DNA of 42,807 nucleotides from the NCBI GenBank assembly GCA_021162685.1, contig JAGGYF010000031.1, positions 1 to 42,807 of the forward strand, written 5' to 3'. This document shows, piece after piece, positions 23,636-42,536 of the stretch. A program made the position numbers and the translations under genes. Source of the stretch: Candidatus Iainarchaeum sp. Its GTDB lineage: Archaea; B1Sed10-29; WALL01. How positions within the stretch are numbered: the stretch's first letter is position 1; every line of letters begins with the position of its first letter. The notes beneath the pieces are model-generated. The model was given only the letters and a program-made list of their open reading frames with translations, was not told the origin of the DNA and did not search any database.

Positions 23636-23708
23636 TGGGCTTGGGCGGGTTCGAACCGCCGATCTCTGCCTTGTAAGGGCAGCGTCATAACCACTAGACC
23701 ACAAGCCC
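23636..23708 (-). tRNA. tRNA-Val(TAC)
   Basis: GGGCTTG acceptor stem, D-arm TAGTGG, anticodon arm CTGCC-CT-TAC-AA-GGCAG, GGCGG-TTCGAAC-CCGCC T-arm; CCA not encoded. Confidence 0.97.
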
Positions 23709-29062: not shown

Positions 29063-29127
29063 AGATGCACCTTGGAAAGCTATACACTACACTATATTTA
29101 AAGTTACCTAAGTATATTATATTAACT

Positions 29128-30168
29128 ATGGGATCAAATTTAAGGGATATTATTGAGTTTCTTGGAAAGAGGTATGTTGCGGACAAGGTTATACCTCCTA
29201 CTACTATGTACTCATCGGAGAAGAGGAGGTATAGGCTTTTCCCTATAACAGAACATTCGTTCAAAAATTATAACCCTCTCTCCCTAGATGCTGCGTTTTC
29301 TGTTGTTGCTATTGATGGTGGTTCTGCAGAGGTATTTGATACTGCGTACTGGGGTATTGGATACATAAAATTAAGGGCAAGAAAGATTGTATTTGACCCT
29401 AAAAAGAAGATTGCGAAGACCATTGAAACAGAATCAAAGGACAAGTTTGTATTATTTTTAACAGAGGATGAGATAGAAACAAAAAATGATGATGTTGTCA
29501 AGAGGAAGTTTTATGAAAAGGGTAATTATCTGAAAAGAGAGGAGACGAGATTCGCCAGAGAACTAACAAAAAAAGGGTTTGTTGATAAAGATGAACTTGT
29601 TCTCATTGATGGAACACTAAGTACGCAGGGATTTTATGAGCAGGAATTAGTTAAGGTCCATGATAACATCCTAGGGATATCAAAAAGGAGCGGTATGACA
29701 ATAAATAGGTATGCTGCTTCATCTTATCTTTCAAAGCTTGCTATGAGATATAAAAAGAATAGTATGCCTTGGTACTGTTATCCGCTGGTCGCAGAGTATC
29801 CTGGAAAGGAAAAGCCAATTGCTGAGATTATGTTTGCGAGTTTTGTTAGTAATAGCATACATTGTTTTAGGATTGACTTCCCTAGTAATGTATTAAATAA
29901 GCTTGATGAGAAAGACAGAGAAGAGCATATAAGTGAACAGCTATCAAAGGTTGCGATGTTCAGCTTGGAACCAAAATATAGGAACTATCCTTATCCTCTT
30001 GGTGCTGTTCACACAGACGCTGTTATGAGACCGAGAGATAGGGAATATGCACAAGAATATGTTAAAAAGGTATTGCTTAATACGAACATGGACAAGGACG
30101 TTGCTGATCTGATAAAAAGAGATATTGAAGAAGATTTATGGTATGAGAGATTTAGGAGGAGAGCGTGA
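29128..30168 (+). CDS. nurA: NurA-family nuclease (divergent paralogue)
   Basis: VAIDGGS, LIDGTL, GISKRS and YPYPL..VH motifs; coupled to a HerA-like gene. Confidence 0.85.
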   Translation: MGSNLRDIIEFLGKRYVADKVIPPTTMYSSEKRRYRLFPITEHSFKNYNPLSLDAAFSVVAIDGGSAEVFDTAYWGIGYIKLRARKIVFDPKKKIAKTIETESKDKFVLFLTEDEIETKNDDVVKRKFYEKGNYLKREETRFARELTKKGFVDKDELVLIDGTLSTQGFYEQELVKVHDNILGISKRSGMTINRYAASSYLSKLAMRYKKNSMPWYCYPLVAEYPGKEKPIAEIMFASFVSNSIHCFRIDFPSNVLNKLDEKDREEHISEQLSKVAMFSLEPKYRNYPYPLGAVHTDAVMRPRDREYAQEYVKKVLLNTNMDKDVADLIKRDIEEDLWYERFRRRA

Positions 30169-31748
30169 TGAAAAAGGTTGGAAAAGTAGATTATTTTGAT
30201 GGGAACAAAGGAAAGCTGTTCTTCTTTGTTGAAGATGAGAATGGGGTGGAGGAGGAAGGATTTTATAAGGTAGAAAACGATGAAAAGGTGTTCTACATCT
30301 TTGTTACCAGCCTCTGTGAAATGCCTTTAGACTCTGAATTAAGAGCGAGGTATTCAAAGTATGATTATGCATTTGATACTGAAGAACGATACCTCTTGTA
30401 TGCACAGGCAACTATCCTACTTGAATATAGAAAAGGGGATAAAAAGAAGATAATAGGTTACAAAACAATCCCAAGACATAATGAACTTGTTTATGTGTTA
30501 GAAACGCATGACTTTGATATCCTTGGTCTGCCAAAACTTGATTTTGCACATGTTAGGTCGGGGTCACATCACTTTGACACAAAAGCAGGTTTCAGAAAGG
30601 AAGCATATATTACTCATTGGCTCCTATGCGGCTGGACAAACTCTGGGAAAACAAATGCCGCAAAGGTATTACTAAATGTAACAATAAAAGGAGATGGAGA
30701 ACCGTTTGCTGGAGGAGTAGTTATAGACCCACATGGAGAGTATTATCAGGAGCTTAAACATTTCAATACTGTTGGTGCGCCAAGGGTTATACACTATACT
30801 GTTGGCGCTGGAAATGATGAATTTGAGAAGGAGTTAAAGATTTCATATCAGAACATATACCCTAGTTATCTGACAGAGGTGTATGAATTCAGGGAAGATA
30901 CACAAGTAAACTTTATGAATCAGTGTGTACGCTGGAAAGGCAGGAAAGACTGGATAAGATATCTGCTTGATACACCAGTTGAGAAAATTGTTGATGACTT
31001 CAAGAATGAGGAGAAAGGAGAGTTATCTCCCTTAACTGTCATGGCTGTGAAGAATAGACTAAATGGTATATTCAAAGAAGACGAAGAGGTTTGGACAGCA
31101 GAATCAAATAATTTTATTAGTACTATTGTGGAAGGTGTCACAAGAGGAAATTGGTATATAATAGATGTTAGCTCTATTGGTGAGAGAACAACAAAGGTCA
31201 TTACAGCGATGATCGCAAAAAGTATTTTCTCAAAGTATAAATCACAGAGAGTTAGAAACTATAACGAGTGGAAAAAATACAAGCCAGCTGGTATCCTGGT
31301 GGAGGAGGCACATAATTATTTAAGTCCTGAGGAGACAGGAAAGGGCAATGTAATCGCAAAAATAGCAAAGGAAGGAAGAAAATTTCATGTATTCACCATT
31401 GTTGTTGAACAGGATCCAGGAGGAATTGATCATAGAATATTGAAACAGATACACAACAAGGTGATTTTGCAGCTTATCCCTTCTGACGCAAGAGTGATTG
31501 CAGAAACAACACCCTATGTCAATGAACTTGAGAAGAAGATACCTTATTACAGTATAGGAGAGGGTCTCTTTGTTTCAACTGGCTCGTTTAATTTTGCACT
31601 TCCTGTAAAGTTTCCGAGGATATCCGAATGGATTGATAATAATATAGATAAATGTAAGAGATGTGGCAAGCCAACAATGAGCATAACTGGCCTATGCCTA
31701 AACTGTCAGAATGTAAAGAAAAACAGAGATATCAGCGCATTTATGTAA
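30168..31748 (+). CDS. herA: HerA/FtsK-family (DUF87) ATPase with C-terminal zinc ribbon
   Basis: N-terminal HAS-barrel-like region, Walker A GWTNSGKT, IDPHGEY, Walker B VEEAHNY, IAKEGRKF and EQDP; tail CKRCG...LCLNC. Confidence 0.88.
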   Translation: MKKVGKVDYFDGNKGKLFFFVEDENGVEEEGFYKVENDEKVFYIFVTSLCEMPLDSELRARYSKYDYAFDTEERYLLYAQATILLEYRKGDKKKIIGYKTIPRHNELVYVLETHDFDILGLPKLDFAHVRSGSHHFDTKAGFRKEAYITHWLLCGWTNSGKTNAAKVLLNVTIKGDGEPFAGGVVIDPHGEYYQELKHFNTVGAPRVIHYTVGAGNDEFEKELKISYQNIYPSYLTEVYEFREDTQVNFMNQCVRWKGRKDWIRYLLDTPVEKIVDDFKNEEKGELSPLTVMAVKNRLNGIFKEDEEVWTAESNNFISTIVEGVTRGNWYIIDVSSIGERTTKVITAMIAKSIFSKYKSQRVRNYNEWKKYKPAGILVEEAHNYLSPEETGKGNVIAKIAKEGRKFHVFTIVVEQDPGGIDHRILKQIHNKVILQLIPSDARVIAETTPYVNELEKKIPYYSIGEGLFVSTGSFNFALPVKFPRISEWIDNNIDKCKRCGKPTMSITGLCLNCQNVKKNRDISAFM

Positions 31749-35397: not shown

Positions 35398-35472
35398 AGC
35401 GGGGTGGAGCAGCTAGGAGTGCTCGTCGGGCTCATAACCCGAAGGTCGTTGGTTCAAATCCAACCCCCGCTA
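35398..35472 (+). tRNA. Initiator tRNA-Met(CAT)
   Basis: AGCGGGG...CCCCGCT-A with A1:U72; anticodon stem TCGGG-CT-CAT-AA-CCCGA with three G:C pairs; TTCAAATC T-loop. Confidence 0.97.
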
Positions 35473-35485
35473 CTATCCTCATTTT

Positions 35486-35791
35486 TTACTTCGTTCGCTT
35501 GAAGTGATAAAGAACTCTATCCAAATCTTGCACTTTATCTCCCTTTATAACTATACCCTCTTCTCTCAAGCGCCTTTTCTTTTCCCTTGCCCCTTTTGAA
35601 TATCCTCCTAGTCTGCCGTCTGACATGATCACTTTATAGCAGGGGTATTTATCTGGATATTTATTTGTTCTCAATAATGTTGCTACTGCTCTTGGTGATG
35701 TCTGCAATACTTCTGCAAGTTCTTTGTATGTTGTTATCTTTCCTTTTGGTATCTTAAGAAGGTAACAATTCAATCGTTCCCTTAGTGACAT
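35486..35791 (-). CDS. MGMT family O6-alkylguanine DNA alkyltransferase (short form)
   Basis: IPKGKITTYKELA, SPRAV, PCYKV (Cys retained), GGYS and LREEG motifs. Confidence 0.9.
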   Translation of the reverse strand: MSLRERLNCYLLKIPKGKITTYKELAEVLQTSPRAVATLLRTNKYPDKYPCYKVIMSDGRLGGYSKGAREKKRRLREEGIVIKGDKVQDLDRVLYHFKRTK

Positions 35792-35812
35792 GGGCCCCCC
35801 TCACTTCCTGTA

Positions 35813-36031
35813 TTATTTTGGTTTTATGATTGTTAGTGCCCCATCCCCTAATTTAATAATGGTTACACTATCTTTTAATACTGGAGGTATAAACCTTCCC
35901 TTTCTATCATAATAACCATATATGTAATTACATATGGTTGCTGGGCTTAGTCCTGCTCTTCTGGCTATTTCTCTTATCCACAACCCATTTGGGTGTTGTT
36001 TTATTATATTTAACACACGCTCATGTGACAT
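35813..36031 (-). CDS. Small helix-turn-helix protein
   Basis: GLWIREIARRAGLSPATI HTH pattern. Confidence 0.78.
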   Translation of the reverse strand: MSHERVLNIIKQHPNGLWIREIARRAGLSPATICNYIYGYYDRKGRFIPPVLKDSVTIIKLGDGALTIIKPK

Positions 36032-36195
36032 ATTCTATACCTCTTAGTCTGTTGTGTTATTATGAATTGTTCTTTGATATTGAAATAATATATGTCAAAT
36101 CAAATATTAATATTGAACACTGTTCAGTCATCATTTAATATTTATAATATCATCGTTTTTATAACTTCATGTTTAATTTCATGCATTCCTTTTCA

Positions 36196-36819
36196 TCATT
36201 TCACAGAAAATCGTGACAAAAATCCTTTTGCTTCATCAACATCTGGTTTGAATGGAAAATGTATACCCTTGAATAATTCACCATACTCTAATACCTTTTC
36301 TAGTAATTCAATTTCATCGTAATCAAGAGGAAGGATATACAAGTGAACCCTTAGGTCATCCCTTACTCCCTTATCAGATGCACACATAAGAAGGTTTAAC
36401 ATCTCCCATGTGAAATTTTTTGGTTTTTTGAAACGTGATAAAAAGGCATTTATTTCCAAATTAACGTCTGGTGGCGCATCTGGGAGTGAATAAATATTAG
36501 GTAATGTAGTGTTCTCACCTAAATATAAGAAATGGGTTTGGTACAATTCACTTACCTTTCTCGGGGTTGGCAACCTTCTCTTTTTTGCATCAATCTTTGA
36601 TAATATAATTGCCTTTTCCCATACTTCACCTTGATCAGGGGAGTATTTGAGTAGTATATTCTTATCCACTAAAGGAGAAAAAACCTCTCTTTTCAGCTTG
36701 TAAATTACTTTTCTCGGCTTCTTTGATATAAAATACCCTCTTTTCTGGAGCAGCCTAACAATGTTTACCGGAAGTATGGGGGCACCCTGGCCGCAGATAT
36801 TAATAATATCTACAATCAT
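36196..36819 (-). CDS. Hypothetical protein
   Basis: 207-aa open frame with no recognised motif. Confidence 0.6.
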   Translation of the reverse strand: MIVDIINICGQGAPILPVNIVRLLQKRGYFISKKPRKVIYKLKREVFSPLVDKNILLKYSPDQGEVWEKAIILSKIDAKKRRLPTPRKVSELYQTHFLYLGENTTLPNIYSLPDAPPDVNLEINAFLSRFKKPKNFTWEMLNLLMCASDKGVRDDLRVHLYILPLDYDEIELLEKVLEYGELFKGIHFPFKPDVDEAKGFLSRFSVK

Positions 36820-36993
36820 AGGTTATTTTATGTTCTTATACAAATATATAAGTTTGTGTCCCAAGAACATAGGACTTAATCATTGTTCGCGCAACATATA
36901 AAAATACTATAATTATTGCAAAATATACCTATATACCACCAATCTTAAATATGAAAAGTTATACAATAAACACAAAAACAAGGGTTGTTTGCT

Positions 36994-38161: not shown

Positions 38162-38836
38162 ATGGATATATATGATATCAAAATAGGAGATAAACACATA
38201 AGAATAGTGGGCACTGGCCATGTAATAAAACAATCCATCAAAACAATAGAAAAGGCAATAGAGGAATTTAACCCAGAGGTCATATGTGTTGAGCTTGACA
38301 TGTTCAGAGTAATTAACATGAGGAAAAAAAGAAAACCATCAATAAAACAAGCAGTATCAGGCAGAAACAAGCTTCAAAATATTATCTATTTCTTGCTTTT
38401 CTCTTTGCAGAAAAGGGCAGGAAAAACAATGGGAATGAAGCCAGGTGCAGATATGATGTATGCTATAAATGAGGCAAGGAGAAGGGGGATACCCATCTTC
38501 CTCATTGATAGAGACATAAGGGAAACAATGGAAGATATGATGAAATCTATGTCCTTTTTAGAGAAAATGAGACTCATAAAAGCAATATTTCTTGGGTTTT
38601 TTGAAATGGGAGACAAAGAAGCGATTTCTACTGTCGTAGACCAAAAAGAGGAGATTATGAGAGAGTTTAAAAAGGAATTTCCCTCTTTGTACTACGTGCT
38701 TGTGACAAAACGCAACAGATATATTGCAGAAAACATACTCTCGCTTCCTAACAAGCGCATAATGGTAGTTATTGGTGCTGGTCATGTACCTGGTGTAATA
38801 CGTAATATACAGTCAAGAAAGCGTAAGTTTACGTAA
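38162..38836 (+). CDS. TraB/PrgY (Tiki/TraB) family protein
   Basis: VGTGHV, VELD..R, PGADM, IDRDI, KRN and IGAGHVPG motifs. Confidence 0.9.
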   Translation: MDIYDIKIGDKHIRIVGTGHVIKQSIKTIEKAIEEFNPEVICVELDMFRVINMRKKRKPSIKQAVSGRNKLQNIIYFLLFSLQKRAGKTMGMKPGADMMYAINEARRRGIPIFLIDRDIRETMEDMMKSMSFLEKMRLIKAIFLGFFEMGDKEAISTVVDQKEEIMREFKKEFPSLYYVLVTKRNRYIAENILSLPNKRIMVVIGAGHVPGVIRNIQSRKRKFT

Positions 38837-38854
38837 ACTTTACGTAAAGTTTAC
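38823..38854. repeat. Tandem overlapping palindromes GTAA-N2/3-TTAC x3
   Basis: GTAAGTTTAC GTAAACTTTAC GTAAAGTTTAC. Includes the perfect 16-bp AAGTTTACGTAAACTT and 14-bp ACTTTACGTAAAGT palindromes. Confidence 0.85.
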
Positions 38855-38858
38855 ATAT

Positions 38859-39548
38859 CTACATAGCAATGATCTGGTATTTTGTTCGTCTCCCTTTCTT
38901 AATACTCCTCACATATCCTGCTTCTTGCAATGCCTTCAACCTCTCCCATATATACTGCCTTGTATAACCCACTCTATCAACAAGCTCCAATGTGCTTAGT
39001 TCCTCTTTAGCAAGCGCATCCAATATCTTCTTATCTGCTTCTAATAATTCAATTGTTTGTTCTACATGTGTCAACTCCGTAATATCTTGTGTCAGTTGAC
39101 GTGTCGTATTGTCAATTTGACGTGTCAACTCTGCTTTTCGCTCCTCCAGTTCCCTTATCCTATCATTGATATCCACAATCCCTGACAAGATCCTATCCTC
39201 CTTGACTATGTCTTCATTTATTAATGCCTTTATATCCTCTAAATCGTGCTTTTTGGCCATATCTTCCCCAATAACGTCCAATTTTTCGTTTATAGACCTA
39301 TATAACTCCTCTAACTTGCTTATTCTGTCTTGGATTGTTAGTAGAGGATGTTCAACAGCAGGCGAGTAAACCCTCTGTTCTGGAGCATTTAACGATTCTA
39401 ATGCAATTGTTTGCTCTTTAATTCCAGAAATAAGCTCCTTTTTTTTATTCACCTGTATTTCTTCCTCTTTTCTGTGTTTTAAAGGCTCTTCTTCATTTTT
39501 CTTTTCTTCGCTTCTCTTCTTCTTAAGCAGCCATGACAAGAAACCCAT
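38859..39548 (-). CDS. Protein with amphipathic N-terminus, long coiled coil and C-terminal winged helix
   Basis: N-terminus MGFLSWLLKKK; heptad-rich middle; ArsR-like wHTH ILDALAKEELSTLELVDRVGYTRQYIWERLKALQEAGYVRSIKKGRRTKY. Confidence 0.85.
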   Translation of the reverse strand: MGFLSWLLKKKRSEEKKNEEEPLKHRKEEEIQVNKKKELISGIKEQTIALESLNAPEQRVYSPAVEHPLLTIQDRISKLEELYRSINEKLDVIGEDMAKKHDLEDIKALINEDIVKEDRILSGIVDINDRIRELEERKAELTRQIDNTTRQLTQDITELTHVEQTIELLEADKKILDALAKEELSTLELVDRVGYTRQYIWERLKALQEAGYVRSIKKGRRTKYQIIAM

Positions 39549-39556
39549 GTGTATAT

Positions 39557-39615
39557 TATGTCAGTTGACATATTTAATCATTTAGTTTACGTAACCTTAC
39601 ATGTCAACTGACGTA
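39557..39615. promoter_or_regulatory. Palindromic operator/centromere-like cluster upstream of the coiled-coil wHTH gene
   Basis: TATGTCAGTTGACATA (39557-39572), GTAACCTTAC (39591-39600) and GTCAACTGAC (39603-39612). Confidence 0.7.
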
Positions 39616-39640: not shown

Positions 39641-39946
39641 GAACTCTCACTTTTAATGTTTTTGGGCCATTTTTACATTTTCTACCCTCTTCTCTCACTT
39701 TTTTGGTATGCTCCCTCACTTCTCTCACTTTTCCTGTATGTGAATACCGGAAGTAAACCCCTTGGTTAGAACTCTCACTTTTTCTATTTCCCCAAGGAAC
39801 TCTCACTTTTTAGGCCTTTATTTTCTATCTCCCCTTGCTTACTCTCTCCTTTTTAATGTTTGATGTATGGATCTCTCACTTTTTTGTGATGGCCTGTGGC
39901 ATGTTTAGTGGTAGGGATCTCGTTGCCGAGAACTCTCACTTTTTTT
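39641..39946 (+). repeat. Array of co-oriented CTCTCACTTTT direct repeats (iteron-like)
   Basis: Exact 11-mers start at 39644, 39692, 39722, 39772, 39800, 39873 and 39933, with variants at ~39711 and ~39842. Four copies extend to GAACTCTCACTTTT. Confidence 0.9.
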
Positions 39947-40094
39947 AGGTAGGAGAAGAGCCCCAAAAACGTATAACCAAATAATCCTTTTATAAAATAT
40001 ATAATATAATATACATCTTATATAAGACATTTCTGAAAGAAACCTTTATAAATATCCTTTTACAAAGTATATAACAAAAAACAATGGTGGGTGT

Positions 40095-40364
40095 ATGGAG
40101 CCTGAATTTTTTATAAGAACAAAGCCAGTAAGGGCATTAGTTGCCTTATCTGACAAAAATAGGGAATGGTACGCACATTTATTGGCAAAGGAGATAGATT
40201 GTACCTATGCACATCTAATAAAGCTTTTAGATACCATGGCTGAAGCAAACATAGTAATATTTGAGAGAGAGGGAAGGATAAAGAAGGTAAAACTGACAGA
40301 ATTTGGAGAAGAGTTAGCACATGATTTTGAGACAGTTTTGAGGAGATTAGAAAAGATAAAATAG
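40095..40364 (+). CDS. Small MarR-like winged-helix protein
   Basis: LAKEIDCTYAHLIKLLD..ANIV.FEREGRIKKVKLTEFG wHTH pattern; GGTGG RBS. Confidence 0.88.
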   Translation: MEPEFFIRTKPVRALVALSDKNREWYAHLLAKEIDCTYAHLIKLLDTMAEANIVIFEREGRIKKVKLTEFGEELAHDFETVLRRLEKIK

Positions 40365-40428
40365 AAAAATATACCGAGAAAAAGAGTTTTGGAAAATACC
40401 AAAATGTTTGGTAAAACATTATTGCAAA

Positions 40429-40632
40429 TCATTGCTGTGCCATGTAAGAGATTGTTATAAAACCCACCCATACTGGGGCGAGGACAGGCAGAATAGTGGT
40501 TATTGGAATGTTAAGAAGGTGGAGAATAACCCCTAATACGAATGAGATCACCGTGCTTATACCAATAGAGAGCAGAATAGAAGTATCCCTCCTATGTGGA
40601 GGGTGCGGAGGGTGAGGCGGTTTTGGTGGCAT
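40429..40632 (-). CDS. Small membrane protein with Pro/His-rich N-terminus
   Basis: MPPKPPHPPHPPHRR followed by two TM helices. Confidence 0.7.
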   Translation of the reverse strand: MPPKPPHPPHPPHRRDTSILLSIGISTVISFVLGVILHLLNIPITTILPVLAPVWVGFITISYMAQQ

Positions 40633-40633
40633 A

Positions 40634-41104
40634 TTAAACCCCTATTGCAATAATTGATAAAACCAATATCTCCTCTTCTTCTGGCTTAAGATCAAAAAAT
40701 TCCCCCTCAATGCCCTTTCCAAGATTTGAGAGTAGTGGTATGTATACACCAATAGAACGCAATCTCCCAATGGCCTTATGGTTCTTCATAATCTTGAACT
40801 CCTGGGTGAATAATGTCTCATGTTCATGTATATCAAATAACTTCTTCGCCTTTCTGAATACATCAAAATGCGTCATAATCCCTATTCTCTCATAAACCGA
40901 GCCAATATACTCTCCTTGCTTGTATATTTTTGCATTCCTCACTATTATACCTGACCTCACAATAGTGTAATGTGTATCAAACCAATCCACTTCAAGAACA
41001 TCTTTGTAAAATGGCCGCTCTATTCGTATGATCTCAGTAGAGCTCCCCCTCCTTATCTTCATCAATGCTCCCTTCAATCCAGCACTTAGTTCAAAACTTA
41101 CCAT
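40634..41104 (-). CDS. Hypothetical beta-rich protein, possibly LURP-one/scramblase (tubby-like) fold
   Basis: Alternating beta-strand pattern ending in a hydrophobic C-terminal helix (ILVLSIIAIGV). Confidence 0.5.
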   Translation of the reverse strand: MVSFELSAGLKGALMKIRRGSSTEIIRIERPFYKDVLEVDWFDTHYTIVRSGIIVRNAKIYKQGEYIGSVYERIGIMTHFDVFRKAKKLFDIHEHETLFTQEFKIMKNHKAIGRLRSIGVYIPLLSNLGKGIEGEFFDLKPEEEEILVLSIIAIGV

Positions 41105-41109
41105 CTATA

Positions 41110-41466
41110 TCAGCTCACCGGCGTTTTCCACCTCTTTATGAAACTTTGCCAGATATCTGCCATTTCTTGGCATCTATTGGCAAATTGTTCGGATAATATC
41201 CATTCTCCATCTACCTTTGTTATCATACCAGCATCCCTGAGCTTATCAATCATTGTGTAGTATTCCTGGTGCGTACATCCAAATTCTTTTTGTAGGGCTT
41301 CCCATTCCTTTGCTGGTATTCTCTTCCTCTTTATAAGCGCATAGATGAATGATTCTGCTTTTTGGCTCAATTCTGGCTTTCTGTAGAACAAGCCCTCTAG
41401 TATTGTTCTTAGGTCAGGGATACGTTCCCTTGCTTTGATCTTTATGGTTGTCTCGTACTTTGCCAT
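41110..41466 (-). CDS. Hypothetical protein with probable winged helix
   Basis: EYYTMIDKLRDAGMITKVDGEWILS resembles a wHTH recognition helix plus wing. Confidence 0.72.
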   Translation of the reverse strand: MAKYETTIKIKARERIPDLRTILEGLFYRKPELSQKAESFIYALIKRKRIPAKEWEALQKEFGCTHQEYYTMIDKLRDAGMITKVDGEWILSEQFANRCQEMADIWQSFIKRWKTPVS

Positions 41467-41672
41467 TCCACCACGCTATAATAATATTAAAAACTCATAT
41501 ATATTAGTTGTAGTTCAAGTATAATAAGCACAGAAACCGCAAACAAACAACCCATACCTCAGTATATATCTTATCCTAATACACTATCTTCCGCCTCAAA
41601 TCCCCTAGATTAACAGTAAGATATAGTAAAAAAGAGCACAACCCCGTATTGCTAGTATATCATATCAAAATA

Positions 41673-42038
41673 TTATACAACCCTTAGCGTGGCAGTGGTT
41701 TTCACCTGTCCTGTTGCTTTGTCAAACCTTACCTCATGTTCCCTAACTGTTATCTCAATATTATAGCTACCTGGCTGGATATTATACTTCCCATATATCT
41801 TGAATATAGCATCCTTTGATTGATTAGGCTCTATTCCCCCTAATCTGACCCTTTTCTCCTTTAGCAGGTTTTCTCCTACAAAATTCAGGACAAATGGCAA
41901 TTTTACACTAACAGAGTAGTTCTTTGCAGTATTGCTCCTATTCTTTACCTCAACTGCAAGGATCACTGTTTCCTTTCTTCCAGCAACCATTCTCAATGGC
42001 GTAAAACTTGTTCTGACGCGCATCTGCGGCTCTTCCAT
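41673..42038 (-). CDS. Hypothetical Ig-like beta-sandwich protein
   Basis: VEVKN...YSVSV.LP...IEPNQSK..F.I...PGSYNIEITV CARDB-like pattern; no signal peptide. Confidence 0.65.
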   Translation of the reverse strand: MEEPQMRVRTSFTPLRMVAGRKETVILAVEVKNRSNTAKNYSVSVKLPFVLNFVGENLLKEKRVRLGGIEPNQSKDAIFKIYGKYNIQPGSYNIEITVREHEVRFDKATGQVKTTATLRVV

Positions 42039-42083
42039 CAAACCACCTTACTATTTATACATCTTCTTAGAATAAATACCCAT

Positions 42084-42536
42084 ATGATTCCAGAAAGGGA
42101 GTATATTAAGAGAAGATATATAATAAGGGATATGCGCTACCCAACAAGCGTGAAACTAACAAAGAATTCACTACTTAGATGGTTCTGTCTGAGCATTGGA
42201 TTGCTTTCTGAGGACGAGTCACGGCAGAGTGTAGTACCTATTCTTGATGCATTTTTACACCTACAACTAAGTGAGAGAAGGAACCCAACTATACCAGAGA
42301 TTGCAGAACTAGCAAAACAGCCAGAAAAGGCAGTTAGATACCATATGAATAAACTTGTAGACCTAGGCATTGTAGAGACAAATTCTAGGCAATATAGGTT
42401 TGTGCTGGATGAGCAATCTGATACCCTAGACCTTGTTGAGTCCTTCAAACAGCATTTCTCAAAAAACGTGGAAAAAACCCTGAAAAACATAGAGAAGGCA
42501 GTTTCAGAAATCCAACGCCAGTATAGCCAAGGTTAA
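42084..42536 (+). CDS. Winged-helix (ArsR-like) protein
   Basis: PTIPEIAELAKQPEKAVRYHMNKLVDLGIVE...YRF pattern. Confidence 0.85.
   Translation: MIPEREYIKRRYIIRDMRYPTSVKLTKNSLLRWFCLSIGLLSEDESRQSVVPILDAFLHLQLSERRNPTIPEIAELAKQPEKAVRYHMNKLVDLGIVETNSRQYRFVLDEQSDTLDLVESFKQHFSKNVEKTLKNIEKAVSEIQRQYSQG

Follow-up and report, generated by a model that had tools for sequence, protein, structure and literature searches.

The stretch of DNA analyzed here, referred to below as the window, is the entire contig C32 (42,807 bp; JAGGYF010000031.1) of the source genome G000 (Candidatus Iainarchaeum sp.; 1,113,673 bp in 45 contigs; completeness estimate 98.41%), and it carries a gene for a 229-aa protein with short palindromes of the pattern GTMA-N2/3-TKAC after, inside and before it. 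The clustering of these sites, their helical phasing and conservation, the codon-level constraint on those lying within the gene, the fold of the protein and a context resembling archaeal origin recognition boxes (ORBs) were observed computationally. From these features we infer, with about an even chance of being right, that the protein binds these sites specifically, builds a phased nucleoprotein complex at a candidate chromosomal replication origin (oriC), represses its own expression and uses its N-terminus to tether the DNA. The gene and its sites are located as follows:

38859 to 39548, minus strand: gene for the 229-aa protein, an open reading frame (ORF) that begins MGFLSWLLKKK
38821 to 38856, no strand assigned: downstream array of three abutting palindromic units with ACGT joints (38823 GTAAGTTTAC; 38833 GTAAACTTTAC; 38844 GTAAAGTTTAC)
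39067 to 39130, no strand assigned: intragenic sites, with full sites at 39091-39100 (GTCAGTTGAC) and 39111-39121 (GTCAATTTGAC)
39557 to 39615, no strand assigned: upstream sites at 39560-39569 (GTCAGTTGAC), 39591-39600 (GTAACCTTAC) and 39603-39612 (GTCAACTGAC)

Ten matches of GTMA-N2/3-TKAC were found in the window, eight of them within 38823-39612, and the remaining two (15973 and 40287) were isolated, in agreement with an earlier note made from the letters of the window, which had noticed no such clusters elsewhere in it; every site that it had listed for the three clusters was recovered at its position. The pattern was defined post hoc from the window and replicates in independent genomes. 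Across G000 it occurred 77 times (0.069 per kb), and first-order Markov simulations gave 23-40 matches per 300 kb, so that ~0.06-0.1 matches would be expected in the 793 bp of the locus, where eight were seen; the abundance on which the note had built its proposal therefore holds against this background. Runs of three sites with neighbors no more than 150 bp apart were formed in G000 solely by the two arrays flanking the 229-aa gene. Of the 16 G000 sites that fit the extended consensus RY-GTMA-N2/3-TKAC-RY, 7 were at the locus, and so were the window's three T[GT]ACGT[AC]A junctions and five of its six GTCAACT/AGTTGAC half-sites, including the GTCAACT half-sites at 39070 and 39124 in the intragenic region. 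The downstream array occupies the 22-bp gap between convergent genes and overlaps the final codons of a TraB-family gene, and the two outer upstream sites are inverted copies of one 10-mer.

Comparison with relatives (below, G000 to G011 and the like denote whole genomes, and L014 to L028 and the like denote individual orthologous loci) revealed a single-copy orthologue in nine other species genomes of the order Iainarchaeales (DPANN), out of 12 examined. Strict palindromes clustered beside the gene in eight of nine relatives fetched from whole genomes, with arrays immediately past the stop codon (G001, up to 11 units; G010, 9; G007, 8), upstream of the start and within the coding sequence (CDS); in the ninth, G008, one strict site was present in the CDS and only degenerate variants were found downstream. 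Upstream palindromes were likewise found in L014, L015, L016 and L017. In 14 non-redundant loci, 84 sites were counted in 19.7 kb of locus zones versus 6 in 61.5 kb of flanks, i.e., 4.25 versus 0.098 per kb (~43-fold); it should be noted that the genomes compared are kin and that site counts across them are not independent. The co-occurrence of clusters and orthologues anticipated in the earlier note was thus found across the order. Start-to-start distances in the 14 loci peaked at 10-12, 20-22, 30-33, 42-43, 52-53 and 62-64 bp, that is, in steps of ~10.5 bp, and the sites therefore lie on one face of the helix. Flanking bases extend the unit to a 14-bp palindrome, RC-GTMA-N2/3-TKAC-GY, with ACGT joints. 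Across the 13 genomes of the order, a pattern of two abutting units was matched 24 times in the forward form and never in a reversed-pattern control; such double units were present in 9 of the 13, versus none of 18 genomes from other orders of the phylum. In G005 and G011, the double unit was present and the orthologue was not found with the first query.

The intragenic sites were evaluated by shuffling synonymous codons within each of 11 complete orthologous CDSs (1000 permutations). Full sites numbered 13 compared with a mean of 1.68 (maximum 6) after shuffling, some of the 13 belonging to the array where it runs into the 3' end of the CDS, and GTCAAC half-sites numbered 18 compared with a mean of 5.8 (maximum 12); neither observed count was reached in any of the 1000 permutations. 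In 8 of the 11 CDSs, a site was located between ~+316 and +533, a range that includes the region of the window whose translation across the intragenic sites is ELTRQIDNTTRQLTQ, as the earlier note had read it. Both Arg codons within the intragenic sites of the window are CGT, which accounts for 5.7% of the Arg codons in long ORFs of G000, and in L017, L019 and L025 the DNA word is retained in another reading frame as ACG/GCG/GTG TCA AC(T/A). Taken together, codon choice indicates that the intragenic sites are under constraint at the DNA level, as had been suspected in the earlier note.

The product begins with a hydrophobic/polybasic motif (MGFLSWLLKKKR, residues 1-12), followed by a disordered K/E-rich linker (residues ~15-62), a conserved motif VEHPLLTIQDRISKLEE at residues 65-81, which is an invariant block in the family alignment, and a winged helix at residues 170-214 (Pfam HTH_24, PF13412; 31.5 bits versus a cut-off of 21.9). 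The AlphaFold2 model obtained with the family alignment (mean predicted local distance difference test (pLDDT) 77.5, above 90 over residues 120-229) contained a low-confidence helix at 3-17, disorder at 18-62, a helix at 68-95 and a long helix at 101-181, the coiled coil, which leads into a winged helix-turn-helix (wHTH) domain of residues 170-229 (helices 186-193 and 197-209, strands 213-218 and 221-226; pLDDT above 90). The architecture described in the earlier note, namely, the MGFLSWLLKKK start, the long coiled coil and the C-terminal winged helix, is thus borne out by the ORF, the HTH_24 match and the modeled helix. Invariant residues in alignment A1 were H67, P68, Q73, R197, Q198, W201 and R203; the recognition helix is invariant in the family as T-R-Q-Y-x-W-x-R-L, and the N-terminus is nearly invariant (M-G-[LIF]-[LF]-x-[FW]-[LIF], then 3-7 Lys/Arg). 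Homodimer prediction for residues 60-229 gave an interface score (ipSAE) of 0.47 versus 0.00 for the best control, a value attained by 20 of 30 solved homomers and by 1 of 23 single chains, with at least 82% contact agreement between runs and partner pLDDT of at least 75. The predicted interface (residues 117-180) is antiparallel (148 with 148, 131 with 169), and the model supports dimerization of the 229-aa protein without being proof of it.

The orthologue was not found in 28 more distant genomes, barring three domain-level matches (E ~1e-3), and a profile search of 1.84 billion cluster representatives gave only 17 proteins at E ≤ 1e-30, among which no fused forms were seen (known lengths 167-264 aa); longer matches of that search, e.g., P0041 (943 aa), were repeat or coiled-coil noise. 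Homologues are named merely "winged helix-turn-helix" proteins and come from metagenome-assembled genomes of Candidatus Diapherotrites/Iainarchaeum. Shorter proteins of unplaced archaea (159-225 aa; P0042-P0048 among them) have the same order of parts, for example a MSLLDLLKPKKK-type start, EDPLITISRQL, a coiled coil and a wHTH, and the MG-h-h-x-[FW]-h-K/R-rich start is kept across the family and in these distant relatives. A search of the phylum yielded mainly the orthologues already described. The distribution of matches indicates that the 229-aa family is narrow and specific to the Iainarchaeales lineage; if it acts as a one-protein origin tether, a variant form of such a tether may exist in other DPANN lineages.

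Known families were compared with the protein and rejected. Foldseek matches to SmtB/CzrA (E ~2e-4) covered the wHTH only; in whole-protein fold searches (Foldseek, VIA), the match was confined to the wHTH (residues 151-229), a PDB profile search gave just an ArsR wHTH and a spurious coiled coil, and the ESM Atlas gave only generic archaeal wHTH clusters (scores ≤ 0.88). An ArsR/SmtB metalloregulator was rejected, as NCBIfam NF033788 scored 30.2 bits versus a cut-off of 55 and aligned over the wHTH only, and as the architecture comprises an N-terminal peptide, a linker and an 80-residue helix. No ParB-type family, to which Noc belongs, was present among the Pfam or NCBIfam matches at E ≤ 0.01. 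A RacA/MerR-type anchor was rejected because the helix-turn-helix (HTH) is C-terminal and of the HTH_24 type, with no MerR match in Pfam, and membership in PspA/Vipp1/ESCRT-III was rejected, with no PspA_IM30 match in Pfam and a likeness limited to the first ~seven residues. With tblastn, no full-length homologue was found in 72,556 plasmids (three wHTH-only matches, in Haladaptatus plasmids), and none was found in 50,697 phage records; the lack of a full-length plasmid or phage homologue, together with conserved synteny, excludes an origin of the gene from a mobile element or a plasmid partition system.

The simplest account of the sites would be that the gene product itself binds the palindromes, because an invariant recognition helix is paired with an invariant GTMA core and because the sites are strictly adjacent to the start and stop of the gene, occur in its own codons and co-occur with it phyletically. 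Alternatively, the palindromes could be read by another factor (the 89-aa wHTH-like protein encoded next to the locus, another small wHTH protein or Orc1) or could function as hairpins in single strands, either at the origin or at 3' ends, leaving the 229-aa protein a bystander, which we regard as improbable. At least five other small HTH or wHTH genes are conserved in the syntenic block, and hairpin folds better than those of shuffled sequences were obtained for the downstream array and for the upstream inverted pair (RNA folds, z = -2.75 and -5.24), whereas 31 of 74 10-bp sites pair GTAA with TGAC or GTCA with TTAC and so break intra-site pairing (37.7 such sites would be expected if the halves were independent). 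Since the halves are non-complementary in so many sites, the element is conserved as sequence and not as a helix. The sites in the CDS and the strict adjacency to the gene start and stop in 10 genomes also point to the 229-aa gene rather than to another reader.

Autorepression by the 229-aa protein is proposed because the promoter-proximal upstream site, whose end is 12 bp from the ATG, follows a TATA-like ttaaatat and is a probable operator. The same position, which overlaps the likely transcription start, is also what would be expected of an ordinary autoregulated wHTH transcription factor of ArsR/MarR-like type with a small regulon (its own gene, the adjoining genes for TraB and PRC-barrel proteins, and another PRC-barrel locus), in which case the position of the ORB-like boxes would be incidental and the N-terminus would have an unrelated role; about a quarter of the probability may be given to this explanation. 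Double units away from the main locus were found in G002 (97.5 kb and 164.0 kb), G003 (64.3 kb), G004 (C24) and G007 (C11). In G002 and G003, a secondary double site (G002:C13:164000-164020; G003:C45:64319-64339) lies in a convergent gap, flanked by a second PRC-barrel gene and an ORF of 312-342 aa; its 21-mer recurs in G004:C24:16638 and G005:C14:14320, and just a GTCAACT half-site is left at the counterpart in G000 (C34, ~14.2 kb). In addition, the PRC-barrel gene directly follows the array in family f2. Up to 11 helically phased units past the stop codon and CDS sites held by codon choice, however, are atypical of a simple operator, and the conserved N-terminal motif with its 50-residue linker would be left without a role. 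The earlier note had argued that simple autoregulation needs no sites inside or downstream of the gene; this is a reasonable argument, to which the helical phasing adds weight.

Repeats and boxes resembling those of archaeal replication origins were identified around the gene. They had been missed in the earlier note, and they change what the module most likely serves:

35795 to 35813, minus strand: ORB-like box A, ATACAGGAAGTGAGGGGGG, in the opposite orientation to box B and containing AAGTGAG like the iterons
36765 to 36781, plus strand: ORB-like box B, TACCGGAAGTATGGGGG, adjoining the AT-rich stretch 36801-36950
39742 to 39761, plus strand: ORB-like box C, GAATACCGGAAGTAAACCCC, with the core kept and a C-string in place of the G-string
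39644 to 39942, minus strand: eight direct iterons AAGTGAG[A/G]G, consensus AAAAAGTGAGAGTTC, in the sense orientation of the gene

The consensus of the ORB-like boxes is GAATACCGGAAGTAAGGGGGT. Published ORB consensus sequences, as far as they are given in the accessible parts of the sources, are CTTCCAGTGGAAACGAAAGGGGT with a 6-nt spacer (Pelve et al., quoted in PMC4153887, Table 2) and GTTCCAGTGGAAAC-AAA----GGGGG (PMC1868953). The 3' half of the boxes resembles them in having GGAA and then GGGGGT, separated by 4-5 nt here and by 5-6 nt in the published sequences, whereas the 5' half (AATACC) is unlike the TTCCAGT of the ORB consensus. The pattern CCCC-N3-7-TTCCNGTAW was found, as written, in G000 only at 35795 (plus strand) and 36765 (minus strand), with no control matches, and AT-rich stretches are located at 36051-36175, 36801-36950 and 39976-40050; clustered, inverted, genome-unique boxes beside AT-rich DNA are thus present in G000. 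In 10 genomes with the orthologue, 20 of the 30 distinct boxes (nested matches merged) were no more than 8 kb away from it, with inverted pairs being frequent, and a box followed the last downstream palindrome by ~15-100 bp in L015, L016, L021, L022 and L028. In G002, an additional ORB-like box followed by a three-unit palindrome array was observed at C13:97495-97579, 4 kb from the gene, so that box plus array occurs twice in that genome.

The iterons resemble shortened boxes, because AAGTGAG is common to them and box A and because the copy at ~39722 bears the 5' half of the box, ATACAGGAA. Exact copies of AAAGTGAGAG occurred in the iteron region in 7 of 13 cases in G000, and sense-oriented iterons were found no more than 600 bp upstream of the gene or within its 5' end in 13 of the 14 loci with upstream sequence; among the loci with nearby iterons, L020 alone had an additional one farther off. 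In L021, L022, L025 and L017 (also in proteins P0036-P0039), AAAAGTGAGAG iterons extend into the CDS, always framed as K-S-E-S/R (KSER/KSES) in the disordered linker, and in the four orthologues 10 were observed versus 1.67 expected (maximum 6 in 1000 permutations), which marks the iterons as a DNA (or RNA) signal carried by codons. The locus offers two clear cases of DNA signals embedded in coding sequence, namely, the palindromes as LTRQ and the iterons as KSER.

The single orc1/cdc6 gene of G000 is located on contig C27 and has tight flanking spacers (60-142 bp); no repeats or ORB-like boxes were found around orc1/cdc6, save one TACCGGAA in the G002 spacer. In three of five relatives (G002, G003 and G007), orc1/cdc6 shares a contig with the locus, at a distance of 18-29 kb. 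A lone extended-consensus palindrome, GCGTAAGCTTACAC, was observed at C27:20831-20844 of G000, 13 bp past the stop codon of orc1/cdc6; it is one of only nine extended-consensus sites outside the locus in that genome, and it was not seen at the orc1 of G002 or G007. GC skew at third codon positions, corrected for coding strand, was assessed with 500 permutations. In G002:C13 (168 kb), the best change point fell between genes centered at 101,258 and 102,073 (0 of 500 permutations), i.e., at the 229-aa gene (101,741-102,388). The replication term was +0.046 in G007, +0.049 in G006 and +0.076 in G003 and was not significant in G009 and G000. The skew evidence is suggestive only. When 11-mers repeated locally in G000 were ranked de novo, coding tandem repeats and an array with a 73-75-bp period came out on top, and the ranking was uninformative about origins. 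On the basis of the boxes, iterons and AT-rich stretches, the locus is the best candidate oriC in these genomes, one that is not adjacent to orc1. The available portions of the literature on Iainarchaeota, Diapherotrites and Iainarchaeum yielded no publication on replication origins, and those of the archaeal-origin literature yielded no coiled-coil wHTH protein that resides at an origin amid phased palindromes of its own.

The N-terminal peptide on its long flexible linker looks like a tether. The earlier note had described it as an amphipathic helix; the hydrophobic moment of residues 2-12 (0.32) is undistinctive, at the 39th percentile of the protein's own 11-mers, and ranges from 0.15 to 0.79 across the family. 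Of the one-gene centromere or anchor system put forward in that note, the site clustering, the co-occurrence and the overall architecture stand, and the amphipathic character of the N-terminus is not distinctive. The net charge of residues 1-16 is +3 (0 to +7 in the family), and over approximately the first seven residues the N-terminus resembles the start of Vipp1 helix alpha0, MGLFDRLGRVV..., a peptide described as membrane-binding in the accessible part of bioRxiv 10.1101/2024.07.08.602470. A membrane anchor is plausible on these grounds, although the N-terminus is just as similar to the PCNA-interaction motifs of G000.

It is also conceivable that the same DNA-binding module carries an N-terminus resembling a PCNA-interacting protein (PIP) box and couples the origin region to the sliding clamp instead of the membrane, for example for replication-coupled removal or for control of re-initiation; this we consider unlikely. 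The family consensus MGLLDFL matches positions 2-8 of C-terminal PIP-type motifs of G000 (PIP box: Q-x-x-[ILM]-x-x-[FWY]-[FWYL] at a terminus), which provide a PCNA-interaction consensus for this genome, namely, QYNLTDFL in a 1569-aa ORF, QSRLDQWF in a 342-aa ORF and QKNLGEWF in an 1182-aa ORF; such endings were observed at C27:13651-18360 (QYNLTDFL), C33:13277-14305 (QSRLDQWFGG) and C25:14630-18178 (QKNLGEWF). PIP motifs are usually placed at the extreme N- or C-terminus, as stated in the accessible part of PMC3504372, and a replisome partner is plausible in view of the origin context. Agreement is seen at the hydrophobic and aromatic positions (G-F-L-S-W-L here, G-L-L-D-F-L in the family), whereas the conserved glutamine is absent, since the motif begins at Met1, and several family members have no aromatic residue at the expected position. 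Moreover, membrane-binding peptides just as typically have a hydrophobic patch followed by a polybasic run, and residues 1-7 agree with the beginning of Vipp1 alpha0. For the target of the putative tether, we suggest a share of about one half for the membrane and about one quarter for PCNA, with something else as the remainder.

According to the reading that we prefer, a phased complex built and limited by the 229-aa protein, the C-terminal winged helix would read the 14-bp palindromes RC-GTMA-N2/3-TKAC-GY, and palindromes one helical turn apart would place many copies of the protein on one face of the DNA. A cooperative, higher-order complex is expected because of the helical phasing and the coiled coil, which would hold it together over ~0.8-1 kb, and autorepression through the promoter-proximal site would make it self-limiting. 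The complex would most likely organize, position or gate the origin region, because the module sits in the only cluster of ORB-like boxes and iterons in G000. Through the N-terminal MG-hydrophobic-polybasic motif and the flexible linker of ~50 residues, it would be tethered to a second surface, with the membrane as the first choice and a protein such as PCNA as the other. In a narrower and more tentative form, given somewhat less than a third of the probability, the module would be a one-protein origin tether that coats phased palindromes at oriC and either anchors them to the membrane or couples them to the sliding clamp.

Several observations weigh against this reading. At the level of the sites, families f2 and f4 have the gene and no abutting double units, with fewer or degenerate sites; L019 and L020 have one strict site each; the arrays can form the single-strand hairpins mentioned above; and the secondary double site, 62 kb off and conserved in position in G002 and G003, fits a regulon as well as a centromere. 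With regard to the origin, box C has no G-string, orc1/cdc6 is not adjacent, the best skew change point in G007:C1 (178 kb), at ~38 kb (3 of 500 permutations), is 11 kb away from the gene (49.4 kb), and the replication term in G002 has the opposite sign (-0.107). As for the protein, the unremarkable and variable hydrophobic moment does not favor a membrane helix, and the antiparallel pairing would put the winged helices ~100 Å apart, as estimated from the predicted pairing, a separation that in the model does not alone explain recognition of 10-bp palindromes.

The neighborhood of the gene is conserved throughout the order. The gene order begins with genes for a 150-aa HTH protein, proteins of 122, 118 and 156 aa and the 89-aa wHTH protein, continues with the iterons, the 229-aa gene, the palindromes with an ORB-like box and genes for TraB-family, PRC-barrel and NAD kinase proteins, and ends with a 207-aa gene, a 72-aa HTH gene and a gene with an MGMT-like DNA-binding domain. 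No motor or partner gene was identified in this syntenic block, and the synteny indicates that the locus belongs to the chromosomal core rather than to a mobile element. Next to the iteron region is the following feature:

40095 to 40364, plus strand: divergent 89-aa wHTH-like gene, next to the iterons in nine loci (61-69% identity)

Its product had no Pfam or NCBIfam match, and it is a possible alternative binder of either repeat class. The gene is part of a conserved block of five small genes at 40095-42536 (89-aa wHTH-like, 156 aa, 118 aa, 122 aa and 150-aa HTH_20), four of which belong to no Pfam or NCBIfam family; the 118-aa gene has 68-76% identity across the order. Elsewhere in the window, a NurA-HerA gene pair (29065-31748), a 101-aa MGMT-type DNA-binding-domain gene (35486-35791), whose start codon abuts ORB-like box A, and tRNA genes (23636-23708 and 35398-35472) were observed. 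The metagenome contig L024 (3441 bp) contains an inverted duplication, with a second, partial gene copy at 470-973 on the minus strand and PRC-barrel fragments at both contig ends; this is probably a fold-back assembly artefact at a palindrome-rich locus.

The positioning, segregation and licensing of archaeal chromosomes are largely unknown, above all in DPANN lineages, and the locus described here points to a hitherto undescribed origin-organizing or origin-tethering factor. It represents a compact, testable system consisting of one small protein, a 14-bp site, a phased array and a candidate origin away from orc1. If the protein binds and tethers these sites, it would be an archaeal counterpart, made of different parts, of bacterial origin anchors or nucleoid-occlusion factors and the first described archaeal chromosomal origin anchor or gate.

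Comparable arrangements are known from bacteria. RacA of Bacillus subtilis combines an HTH with a coiled coil, binds clustered short inverted repeats (ram) near the origin and tethers them to the cell envelope; its HTH is N-terminal and of the MerR type, and it reaches the membrane via DivIVA. The 229-aa protein is similar in being an HTH and coiled-coil protein with clustered short inverted repeats in a candidate origin region; however, its HTH_24/ArsR-type winged helix is C-terminal, its putative tether is a 12-residue N-terminal peptide, its sites are tightly phased around its own gene, its host is an archaeon, and no sequence relationship exists. Noc, of the ParB family, binds the membrane through a short N-terminal helix and brings palindrome-bearing (NBS) DNA there, its sites being scattered over the chromosome and not arrayed around its own gene. 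A site-specific binder, palindromes and a short N-terminal motif, with a putative membrane role in the present case, are common to both, whereas no ParB/CTPase domain was detected in the 229-aa protein with Pfam and NCBIfam. In ParR/parC and pSK1 Par-type centromeres, repeats with a period of ~10-11 bp lie by the gene of the binder, which coats them cooperatively and regulates its own gene; arrays with this period next to the binder's own gene are likewise found here, but the Iainarchaeales locus is chromosomal, vertically inherited, single-copy and syntenic, with no motor gene seen in the block.

Among archaeal proteins, the wHTH matches Sso10a-2 (4hw0; Z 10.5, rmsd (root-mean-square deviation) 1.9 over 64 residues), which is the level of a generic wHTH, as the best 50 structural matches all had Z scores of 9.8-11.7. 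According to the accessible part of PMC4941522, Sso10a of Sulfolobus (~10 kDa) consists of a winged helix and a long helix, forms an antiparallel coiled-coil dimer and bends, bridges and makes filaments on DNA, without apparent sequence specificity and with the coiled coil C-terminal to the winged helix; in the 229-aa protein, by contrast, the coiled coil is N-terminal to the winged helix and preceded by a tether-like peptide. With ORB and mini-ORB origins, as presented in the accessible parts of PMC4153887, PMC1868953 and PMC1904270, the locus shares GGAA-spacer-GGGGT, inverted pairs, genome-unique boxes, shorter repeated derivatives (here, the iterons with AAGTGAG) and AT-rich stretches, and it differs from ORB origins in the 5' half of the boxes, in that orc1 is not adjacent and in that the iterons all have one direction. 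By analogy, we propose that the module works functionally like bacterial origin anchors and plasmid centromeres while lying outside all those families, and it is thus a candidate for a new site-specific origin- or centromere-like binder assembled from different parts, in a lineage for which nothing comparable has been described.

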